DNA from: a virus
Lineage: Duplodnaviria; Heunggongvirae; Uroviricota; Caudoviricetes
Length of the DNA stretch: 64,000 bases
IMG/VR virus record: IMGVR_UViG_2627853701_000009
Direction: 5' to 3' (one strand)
In this document: positions 18,001 to 21,000 of the stretch, piece by piece
How positions within the stretch are numbered: position 1 is the stretch's first letter
Layout of the letters: each line of letters starts with the position of its first letter
Position numbers: made by a program

Positions 18001-21000
18001 AGTGACCACAACACGATATGTTCTGTTGCCAACCGTTACTTGCGTCCCGCTATCAGAGTGAACAGCAGCATCCCTTACAGAGGATAAAACACGATTATCA
18101 GGCGAAGTCAGGTTTCTGGTTAAAGAATTCCATGAACATCCCAAATTTATAGAAGAGGGCGATAACATACATTTCAACCTTCAAAATAAACCTATCTAAT
18201 TATTCCTAACAGACATCCCCCATACATGACAACAAAAACCGGAGCCGGACTCCGGTTTTGTGAAGCTGTCGGGTTACTTCATCCCGCCAATATTTTCCCA
18301 CGTCCCGTCAGCACGCAGGATTTGCAGCGGTCTTACCACACACTGACCCGAGGACGAAAAAAGAGTTCGGGCTGGGAAGAGACAGAAGAGTAGCAATTTC
18401 AGAAGCATTCACACCAACATTGAGCTTTTCAGCGAAAGTGGGCACGAATCATTGCTGGACAGGGTTAAAGGCACTGACTCAATCACTCTTCATACGTGGC
18501 TTGATCGATATGAAACAATCCTCAGCTAGAGGGGGAGCAAGCCGAAAACATTACTCGACTACGCCAGCAAAATCAGGGCAATTCGAAGAAAATTGCCGGA
18601 CAAACCGCTCACTGACATATCAACGAAAGAGGTGGCAGCAATGCTAAACACCTACGTCGCAGAAGGTAAAGCGGTTTCCGCAAGAGTAATCAGGTCAACC
18701 CTTGTTGACGTTTTTCGAGGGGCAATAGCCGAGGGGCATGTGGCAACGAATCCAGTAACAACAACCCGTGCAGCAAAGTCAGAAGTAAGGCGCTCAAGGC
18801 TGACAGCTAATGAGTATGTCGCTATTTACCATGCTGCTGAGCACCTCCCCATCTGGCTGAGGCTGTCAATGGATTTAGCTGTCGTTACAGGGCAGAGAGT
18901 GGGCGATTTGTGCAGAATGAAGTGGTCAGACATAAACGATGGTCATCTTCACATTGGACAGAGTAAAACAGGAGCCAAAATTGCCATTCCGCTGGCTCTA
19001 ACCATTGACGCACTCGACATCTCACTGGTTGATACACTACAGAAATGCAGGGAGGCCAGCAGCAGTGAAACAATAATCGCATCAACCTATCACGAACCAC
19101 TTTCTCCAGCCACAGTATCACGGTATTTAACAAAGGCGCGAAATGCATCCGGGATCTCGTTTGATGGAGACCCACCGACATTTCATGAACTACGTAGTCT
19201 GTCCGCGAGGCTATATCGGAACCAGATTGGCTACAAGTTTGCACAACGTCTTCTTGGACATAAATCTGATTCAATGGCGGCGCATTATAGGGACAGTCGC
19301 GGGCGGGAGTGGGACAAAATTGAAATCGGATAATGATTTTATTTTGACCAATAATGACTTACCAGATTTAACAACTTGATATTTAATAAGATTTTTGAAC
19401 GAACAACTTCCATGTCAGAAGGAGGATAAAATCACAAAAACACATTAAAAATCATTATGTTATTTATACAATTGATTAAATGATAGACTGCAAAACGCGA
19501 CAAAACACTACATTTAGAGTCACAATTAATCAATGAGTTAGATGTGATTAGTGACCTGAGACAGAGCATTAGCGCAAGGTGATTTTTTGTCCTCTTGCGC
19601 TAATTTTTTGTCATCAAACATACAGCCAATCAGAAGAGCATAAAGCTGCCAAGCATTATATGTCTTAGTTTTATGCTCATTTTCATTAAAAAAATATATA
19701 ATAAGACTAATATCAGTATAAAATATTTATAACACTTAGAGTAAAAATGTAATCAGCTTATACAACCAACAATAATTTAAACTATAAAAAACAATAACAG
19801 AAACATTTATAATTTATTTTAAGTGTTCAAGCGATAAACTGGTAAATTTAACAACTTAATTTTGAGATCTAAGTCACATCAATCAAGCATTCAAACAGTT
19901 ATATATTAAAGCTGTCCACATCGGATATGTGACACTAATAGTATCAATGGATTGATATTATTAATGGATATAAACATGTAATAAGGATTTATTATGAACA
20001 TTCAACCGACCATACAATCTGGAATCACCTCACAAAACAATCAACATCATCAAACAGAACAAATACCCTCTACACAAATACCGCAATCCGAATTACCTCT
20101 AGGATGCCAAGCTGGATTTGTTGTTAATATTCCAGATGATATACAGCAACATGCACCGGAATGCGGTGAAACAACAGCTCTACTGAGCTTGATAAAAGAT
20201 AAAGGTCTGCTCTCAGGGCTAGACGAATATATAGCTCCTCACCTTGAAGAAGGATCCATAGGAAAAAAAACATTGGATATGTTTGGTTTATTCAATGTTA
20301 CCCAAATGGCATTAGAGATACCTAGTTCCGTTTCAGGCATCTCTGGTAAATATGGTGTCCAGCTAAACATTGTAAAACCAGATATTCATCCTACATCAGG
20401 TAATTATTTTTTACAGATATTCCCTCTGCATGATGAAATAGGTTTTAATTTTAAAGACCTTCCTGGCCCGTTAAAAAATGCATTAAGCAACAGTAATATA
20501 TCAACCACTGCAGTGTCGACTATTGCATCGACTGGAACATCAGCCACTACTTCGACGGTAACCACCGAGCCAAAAGACCCAATACCATGGTTTGGATTAA
20601 CAGCTCAAGTGGTTCGTAATCATGGTGTAGAACTTCCTATAGTCAAAACTGAAAATGGATGGAAGCTTGTTGGAGAAACACCACTTACTCCTGATGGGCC
20701 GAAAGCAAATTACACGGAGGAGTGGGTTATCAGACCGGGAGAAGCAGATTTTAAATATGGTGCATCTCCATTACAGGCAACTCTAGGGCTGGAGTTTGGC
20801 GCACATTTCAAGTGGGATTTAGATAACCCTAATACTAAATATGCCGTTCTTACCAATGCTGCCGCAAATGCGCTTGGTGCTTTAGGGGGATTTGCAGTAT
20901 CCAGATTTGCTAGTACAGATCCAATGTTAAGTCCTCATATCGGTGCAATGGTTGGGCAAGCAGCAGGGCATGCTATACAGTATAATACCCCTGGATTAAA

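Follow-up and report, generated by a model that had tools for sequence, protein, structure and literature searches.

The closest described counterpart of the DNA studied here is the exchangeable effector locus of the PPompW prophages, known from Sp9 and CP-933P, which is located downstream of the tail fibre genes (PMC8112680). The same source describes host-derived att sequences carried inside prophages, the published examples being yecE, ykgJ/ecpE and ompW sequences of attB type (B-core-B') that share 81-87% identity with the chromosome; a figure legend of that paper also marks degraded int genes (Nakamura et al. 2021, PMC8112680). The int-attP-sib module of lambda and HK022 has the order int, P' arm, core, P arm and sib. 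Lambda bio/gal-type aberrant excision, together with the Rac, DLP12 and e14 remnants, provides examples of a phage end kept with attR and some host flank, and of large internal losses that leave end genes behind.

Our window, that is, the whole stretch of 64,000 nucleotides of viral DNA analysed (IMG/VR record IMGVR_UViG_2627853701_000009), was recognized by genome comparison and annotation as the effector region of the E. coli O157:H7 prophage named Sp9 in Sakai, CP-933P in EDL933 or 'PPompW'. It is the same locus as the published one, with 99.8-100% identity and the same gene order: positions 16500-20000 show 99.8% identity to more than 380 complete genomes, and nleG', nleA, nleH1-2 and nleF are found downstream of the tail fibre and the small ORF, identical to the Sakai Sp9 annotation. 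The local order in Sakai is tail fibre, small ORF (ECs_1809), nleG2-1 pseudogene, nleA, integrase pseudogene (ECs_1813), nleH1-2, nleF, IS1414 fragment, ISEc8 and further effectors, and the whole block is annotated within Sp9, which is inserted in ompW. The working integrase of the Sp9-type prophage is ECs_1757, at the ompW end, and it is unrelated to the integrase stump discussed below. Where our window departs from the published locus is in its left flank, which differs from every complete genome.

Four effector genes could be placed from their ORFs and available annotation. The T3SS effector and caspase inhibitor nleF is located at 16622..17191 on the minus strand (RefSeq annotation of the identical locus) and the T3SS effector kinase nleH1-2 at 17257..18168 on the minus strand (RefSeq annotation), while nleA/espI is located at 19994..21319 on the plus strand (Sakai annotation) and an nleG-family (DUF1076) gene, a pseudogene in related genomes, at 21659..22189 on the minus strand.

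Between nleH1-2 and nleA, the first-pass annotation had proposed that the end of the small ORF is fused at about 18345 directly to a 5'-truncated integrase, and alignment to the intact ORF copy and to the lambda and HK022 int genes places this breakpoint at 18345/18346, with 72 bp of the ORF retained. The stump (18274..18345, minus strand) comprises the stop codon and the last 23 codons (QCVVRPLQILRADGTWENIGGMK) of a tail-fibre C-terminal ORF (Phage_fiber_C), as indicated by Pfam and by a PGAP pseudogene in related genomes, and downstream of it there is a hairpin terminator at 18235..18259, an inverted repeat with a fold of -17.5 kcal/mol (z = -4.3). An intact copy of the ORF, supported by annotation and Pfam, is located at 22346..22747 on the minus strand (22346-22615 in RefSeq), with the tail fibre gene upstream of it at 22617-23921. 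Positions 18223-18345 correspond to the 3' end and terminator of the intact copy (22295-22417) with a single mismatch at 18283, and the terminator is part of a conserved 123-bp block common to intact copies. In the alignment to the intact copy the similarity ends abruptly after 18345. At the joint the two parents have at most 1 nt (G18345) in common, and no IS is present there.

The joint at 18345/18346 was found in 420 of 5,426 complete E. coli genomes, including O157:H7, O121 and O111:H8 strains as well as dog and swine isolates, at the same nucleotide in all 420 and across several serotypes. It is located within the same cargo block in prophages at two integration sites, ompW and yecE (yecD/yecE). 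In related genomes PGAP describes the first piece as a 72-bp pseudogene, 'phage tail fiber C-terminal domain, missing N-terminus', and the second as a pseudogene, 'tyrosine recombinase, frameshifted, internal stop, missing N-terminus'. Recurring as it does in 420 of 5,426 complete genomes, the joint is neither a product of chance nor a one-off assembly error, and it is an old scar that has been widely and horizontally inherited.

From 18345/18346 the plus strand aligns with the int genes of lambda and HK022, beginning at codon 28 (D-P-R-T...). The 5' truncation proposed earlier therefore stands, with 27 codons missing and not about 30. The resulting pseudogene (18345..19333, plus strand, stop codon at 19331-33; ECs_1813 in Sakai) belongs by alignments and Pfam to the lambda/HK022 family and is of the yfaT type. 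The Pfam match to Arm-DNA-bind_1 starts at profile position 33 of 74, which leaves the N-terminal arm-DNA-binding domain incomplete, and the core-binding and catalytic domains are recognizable in the conceptual translation (PF02899, E = 1.1e-11; PF00589, E = 3.7e-38). The frameshift and in-frame TAG noted in the first-pass annotation were located to a 1-bp deletion relative to HK022 between 18406 and 18407 and to 18527-18529, where HK022 has GAG. To judge from its sequence, the stump cannot be active, because 27 codons are missing and both a frameshift and a stop interrupt it.

The stump and the DNA after it, through 19616, align end to end with the int-attP-sib region of HK022, mEp235 and Gally at 83.7-84.5% identity (about 84% to HK022 over the module), in the same order and with Arm-DNA-bind_1, SAM-like and catalytic domains present. 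The 290 bp after the int stop is not bacterial DNA, and aligns continuously to the P' arm, core region, P arm and sib/tI of lambda and especially of HK022. A complete attP occupies 19334..19556, as delimited by HK022/lambda colinearity and by the attL and attR of UTAK-13, with the P' arm at 19334-19406, the core CTTCCATGTCAGAAG at 19407-19421 and the P arm from 19422 to ~19556; the three parts are contiguous downstream of int and are followed by an intact sib/tI retroregulation hairpin (19557..19616, plus strand), identified by alignment to the lambda/HK022 sib and by a fold of -29.6 kcal/mol (z = -6.8). This hairpin and the terminator of the small ORF were both assessed by folding, and a simple promoter/terminator scan missed both. 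The module differs from that of HK022 and lambda in its core, which is unlike the cores of both phages and matches prophages integrated at yfaT, and in its int, which has lost 27 codons and carries the frameshift and stop. Neither a search with the int stump nor a chimeric query supplying the missing 5' end recovered a close int of full length adjoining nleA-attP; the nearest full-length genes are ~86-87% identical.

The reference for the ends of a yfaT-type phage is UTAK-13, which carries a decayed prophage at yfaT (DUF1175) with a remnant of only ~15 kb. This prophage has a full-length int, 85.6% identical to the int stump, and its cargo is nleG-nleA. At its attL, the P' arm and CTTCCATGTCA(T/G)AAG are common with the window and are then followed by a bacterial gene, whereas the window continues into the P arm. 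At its far end the order is nleG, nleA, sib, P arm, CTTCCATGTCAGAAG and yfaT', and the attR-sib-nleA segment shows ~96% identity to window positions 19407-20010, from the core rightwards. The int/P' part is only ~86% identical to UTAK-13, against ~96% for the P/sib/nleA part. Since the attL and attR of UTAK-13 delimit the core and the window continues into the P arm, the attP of the window is complete (P'-core-P). In the free phage 2B8 the early genes are followed by int, attP, effector cargo, small ORF and tail fibre; an apparent colinearity in BLAST that placed nleH next to int in this phage was discarded as a joining artefact, the annotation giving the usual int, attP and cargo. The integrase belongs to the nleA/nleG/tail-fibre side, in vegetative order, because attR-sib-nleA of UTAK-13 is ~96% identical and its cargo is also nleG-nleA. 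Thus, the series int'-attP-sib-nleA-nleG-ORF-tail fibre most likely represents the excised, vegetative order of a yfaT-type phage carrying nleA and nleG, and nleA/espI was most likely cargo of the int stump's own phage lineage.

Intact relatives of the other side of the joint are also common. The arrangement tail fibre, full ORF, terminator and nleH, with or without nleF, was found in at least 692 genomes, examples being E2348/69 PP2 and O39:NM F8704-2. PP2 carries nleH, occupies the real lambda attB and has an attR built like the relic described below. In F8704-2 there is a complete prophage that ends with ORF-nleH-nleF and an IS1414 remnant and is located at tRNA-Ser via a different integrase; the IS1414 remnant adjoining nleF is shorter in this strain and leads into other DNA. 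Phage cdtI ceases to resemble the window exactly at 18345. On these comparisons ORF'-nleH-nleF is indeed the right-end cargo stump of a lambdoid phage, and the earlier suggestion that a lambdoid right end was reduced to a stump by a single non-homologous event, with its other end in int, is upheld.

Beyond nleF there is a 5'-truncated fragment of IS1414 (IS256 family; 15944..16590, plus strand; Sakai and PGAP annotation), and the DNA left of it (15744-15943) holds a second sib-like hairpin and P arm, picked up as a direct repeat. By comparison with the lambda attP and sib, the K-12 attB and the attR of E2348/69 PP2, the segment 15694..15943 is made up of a B' arm (15694-15729), the core TTAGTATAAAAAGC (15730-15743), identical to that of lambda except for one missing A, a P arm (15744 to ~15880) and a degraded sib (~15885-15933), the hairpin of which has a fold of -14.7 kcal/mol. 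P-arm identity was tried as a classifier between lambda and HK022 and was abandoned, with every pair at 72-86%; cores and flanks were used instead. The B' arm is homologous to the ybhB side of the E. coli lambda attB, and the B' flank and core match the K-12 ybhB-attB in 71 of 86 columns (82.6%), with one 8-bp gap. Among 107 Enterobacteriaceae attB sites, flanks from Escherichia/Shigella alone resemble this arm, none of them being identical; an exact scan of GTDB species representatives for a donor species returned nothing, and a looser scan showed that the lambda attB core is conserved across Enterobacteriaceae. The B' arm is ~67 bp in all and in most O157:H7 genomes is split by a whole ISEc8, the target duplication of which (cgaaaaac) is located at 15694-15701. 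ISEc8 is missing from the relic in dog strain Z1323PEC0011 and swine strain CAU16175, in which the ~67-bp arm is uninterrupted. Read from its core and flanks, the relic is a lambda-type attR (P-core-B') fossil. The IS1414 fragment, placed between sib and nleF, marks a further deletion joint, and the lambda-type end may not be the original end of the lineage that supplied ORF'-nleH-nleF (lineage B below), because the nleF-attR link runs via the truncated IS1414 and the nleF-IS remnant of F8704-2 joins other DNA.

The relic is comparable to the host-derived att sequences of PMC8112680 in that an Escherichia att flank, ~83% identical to K-12, is present in the effector locus. It differs from them in configuration, since bacterial DNA is confined to the B' arm and a phage P arm with sib stands on the other side of the core, which makes it an attR (P-core-B') and not an attB (B-core-B') like the published sequences. 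It also differs in origin, being derived from the lambda site by ybhB, which is not listed in the searched text of that source, and no phage was seen integrated in the relic. A chimeric query made of the left flank, B', the core and the K-12 B arm detected no unoccupied lambda attB (B-O-B') in an effector-locus context in any of the 5,426 genomes at a coverage of at least 80%. As in lambda bio/gal-type excision and in Rac, DLP12 and e14, a phage end with attR and some host flank is retained and large internal losses have left end genes, but only ~67 bp of host flank is kept in the window and it is joined to the cargo of another phage and not to early genes. Unlike Rac, DLP12 and e14, the remnant is embedded in another prophage and not in the chromosome.

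Two further features are peculiar to this window. The right-end remnant of ISEc8 (IS66 family; 15551..15693, plus strand; 100% identical to the O157 ISEc8 from 15551) consists of the last 143 bp of the element, which at 15550-15556 is fused to a truncated gpZ-like tail gene via a shared GGATCC. This junction is present in no complete genome, and relative to the tandem PPompW array of TW14359 ~38 kb is missing. The second feature is in the 116 bp covering the stump and terminator, where all 420 of the 420 joint-bearing genomes differ from the window at 6 positions; here the window agrees at 100% identity with intact copies that other prophages carry. Each of these two features may be genuine (gene conversion; microhomology deletion) or may have arisen as an error in the source assembly.

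In our judgement there is about an even chance that the joint is an illegitimate recombination scar fusing two lambdoid phages of different integration specificity, and not the two ends of one. We prefer this reading because int' aligns with the HK022 int-attP-sib module, its core is common to both UTAK-13 ends and its order is that of 2B8; because a lambda core and ybhB flank are found beyond nleF, the working integrase is of the ompW type and the joint has at most 1 nt of microhomology and no IS; and because the identical joint occurs in 420 genomes within the same cargo block at ompW and yecE. The anatomy of the joint, the configuration of attP, the difference between the cores and the broad inheritance were observed directly; the order and mechanism of events we infer as follows. 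A phage of lineage A, now right of the joint, would have contributed in vegetative order a yfaT-type HK022-like int, attP, sib, nleA, nleG, the small ORF and the tail fibre, followed by tail and head genes. Lineage B, now left of the joint, would have contributed a right-end stump with the last 72 bp of the same ORF family, the terminator, nleH1-2, nleF and the lambda-type sib-P-core-B' attR relic. A lineage-A genome may have recombined with a resident prophage already holding the B cargo (nleH-nleF), in a single crossover joining codon 27/28 of the A int to a point 72 bp before the end of the B ORF, and the replacement would have been completed by homologous exchange or deletion within the late genes, which are 90-98% identical. 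This would have left one prophage holding two consecutive cargo cassettes, and its truncated int would have decayed afterwards (frameshift, TAG). Four points count against a fusion of two phages: the int-stump and chimeric searches did not find the intermediate, a close full-length int by nleA-attP; P-core-P' followed by int is also expected from a tandem yfaT-type pair, so that attP alone is compatible with a one-prophage model; the lambda-type end, linked to nleF via the truncated IS1414, may not be the original end of lineage B; and the unequal identity to UTAK-13 (~86% vs ~96%) is compatible with different origins of the two arms.

The first-pass annotation had taken int' and ORF' for the two extremities of one prophage. 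We found this unsupported, because int' is followed by attP (P'-core-P) and sib and not by attL, because it is syntenic with the nleA/nleG side (2B8 order, UTAK-13 cargo), because the cores expected at the attL and attR of one prophage are mismatched (19407-19421, CTTCCATGTCAGAAG, vs 15730-15743, TTAGTATAAAAAGC), and because no intact version was found: among the 5,426 genomes no related strain has an intact prophage between nleH and int, all 420 of the 420 joint genomes have the same fusion, and full-length int genes reach at most ~87% identity. The idea survives only if tandem yfaT-type phages and further rearrangements are invoked, with int' and ORF' as the ends of a prophage that followed the nleA phage in a tandem pair at one common yfaT-type att, and an internal deletion of ~40 kb from its own int to the small ORF. 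We consider this decidedly unlikely. A tandem array would yield cargo, P-core-P' and int (compare cargo, att and int2 in TW14359), but here it would be inside a prophage with an ompW-type integrase and would require extra recombination steps. The orientation fits a minus-oriented lambdoid prophage, the nleF-to-attR link crosses a truncated IS and the divergence from UTAK-13 is unequal (~86% for int/P', ~96% for P/sib/nleA), yet both the core and the attB flank of the relic beyond nleF are of lambda type, in place of a yfaT-type core. Although intact prophages ending with ORF-nleH-nleF do exist, the one found uses a tRNA-Ser integrase, and the intact version expected is absent from the 420 joint-bearing genomes and elsewhere in the 5,426 complete genomes searched. 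Nested or adjacent prophages are an unlikely explanation, in which a lambda-att phage B would have integrated in a lambda-attB-like sequence beyond the host prophage int, and a deletion of ~40-50 kb, joining int codon 27/28 to the ORF of B, would have removed the attL, int and body of B. This would account for a B' arm embedded in prophage DNA; prophage-in-prophage integration in host-derived attB of PPompW effector loci is documented (PMC8112680), the 81-87% identity of those sequences to the chromosome is like the 82.6% of the B' relic, and tandem PPompW arrays exist, as in TW14359. However, neither an unoccupied lambda attB (B-O-B') in an effector-locus context nor an occupied intermediate was found in the 5,426 complete genomes, and more separate events are needed than in one inter-phage crossover. 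A chimeric join of repeated prophage sequence in the source assembly could be suspected from the two nearby oddities that occur in no complete genome (the 6-position patch in the 116-bp stump and the 15550 junction), but it is hardly credible for a joint that falls on one and the same nucleotide in 420 complete genomes, assembled independently, of several serotypes and at two chromosomal sites.

Extending the two-phage reading to the whole region, we propose tentatively, and at somewhat less than even confidence, that the PPompW-type effector locus was built up from the right-end stumps of at least three lambdoid phages, each stump with a fossil of its own integration system, and that such loci grow by repeated illegitimate int/att-to-cargo fusion. 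The identification of the three fossils as the yfaT-type attP and int stump, the lambda-type attR with ~67 bp of Escherichia ybhB flank, and the working ompW-type site is offered with similar reserve. If this proposal is true, the lambda-type attR relic would add a fourth host-derived att sequence, so far unreported, to those of PPompW-type prophages, and the relic attP could still serve as a substrate for yfaT-type integrases.

Much of this region is familiar, as the locus, the int pseudogene and the 72-bp stump were already known from RefSeq annotation. The searched text of PMC8112680 and the annotations contain no interpretation of the joint, no intact attP or sib by the int stump and no lambda-type attR relic, and ybhB, ybhC and HK022 are never mentioned in that searched text; a search of the literature on ECs1813 and Z6022/Z6023 found nothing relevant. 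The meaning of the joint, the intact attP/sib and the attR relic, undescribed in that text, are therefore small additions to the known picture. The joint is a case of ordinary prophage decay and not a new system. For annotators it is a caution that an int fragment alone gives no basis for calling a separate prophage. For the biology of these strains, the scar provides a fixed and easily scored marker that travels with the nleA-nleH-nleF block across EHEC and EPEC lineages and prophage backbones. As read here, it also shows one route by which effector cargo from two phages can come to stand in series, through the non-homologous joining of an int/att end to a tail-fibre-distal stump, and this route complements the published prophage-in-prophage route.

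The effector locus contains a fossil attachment site of the lambda attR type, embedded at 15694-15943, in which a sib hairpin, now degraded, is accompanied by a P arm, the core TTAGTATAAAAAGC and a ybhB-side flank of ~67 bp. This flank is homologous to the ybhB side of E. coli lambda attB, with agreement to K-12 in 71 of 86 columns. In the Sakai sequence the fossil resumes past the IS66-family element ISEc8, at 8715-8752, and a related genome (L009) carries a copy without interruption at 6316-6585. The list of host-derived att sequences published by Nakamura et al. (PMC8112680) does not include this lambda-type attR fossil. 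A second attachment site adjoins the dead integrase, where a complete attP with an intact sib/tI hairpin occupies 19334-19616. Its core, CTTCCATGTCAGAAG (19407-19421), is also used by prophages integrated at yfaT, such as the decayed prophage of strain UTAK-13, the cargo of which is likewise nleG-nleA.

Two departures from related genomes were observed in the window. At 15550-15556 a gpZ-like tail gene, truncated on its 5' side, meets the final 143 bp of ISEc8 in a junction unique to the window, and the sequence GGATCC (a BamHI site) is common to both partners. Relative to the tandem PPompW array of strain TW14359, ~38 kb is missing here, comprising most of ISEc8, espO1-2, nleG, espM1 and an IS630 fragment, as well as nleG9', the ompW att and everything from int2 up to and including the head genes. 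A true deletion at the microhomology could have made this junction, or it may be an artefact of the assembly or of a gap. Across the stump of the tail-fibre ORF and its terminator (18259-18341), six positions (five substitutions and one T) are unlike those of all 420 genomes bearing the fusion of this stump to the integrase, and at the same positions the window is 100% identical to the intact ORF-end copies of other prophages, as would be expected if gene conversion had replaced a short patch or if the consensus of a repeat were in error.

The window also carries two paralogous lambdoid tail modules in the same orientation (2205-14894 and 22279-34426), which are 90-98% identical, and the left-hand module is the counterpart of the second PPompW prophage that lies in tandem in TW14359-like strains. 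Long direct repeats such as these are substrates for homologous deletion. An nleG-family ORF at 21659-22189 gives a predicted 176 aa from a TTG start; in other genomes, Sakai among them, the annotation marks its counterpart as frameshifted or as a pseudogene.

Beside nleF lies a fragment of the IS256-family element IS1414 (15944-16590), truncated at the end abutting sib. In O39:NM strain F8704-2 (L012, 7340-7480) nleF is flanked by a shorter remnant of the same IS1414 end, joined to a ykgJ-like fragment rather than to sib as in the window. Since the same end flanks nleF in both, nleH, nleF and the IS1414 end appear to move as one unit. In the swine strain CAU16175 (L010, 1-19294) the whole effector block, including its fusion joint, lies in a prophage at yecD/yecE instead of ompW; this copy is without ISEc8 and its nleA is interrupted by an IS3 element. 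From this difference in location, we infer that the effector block moves between prophage backbones.
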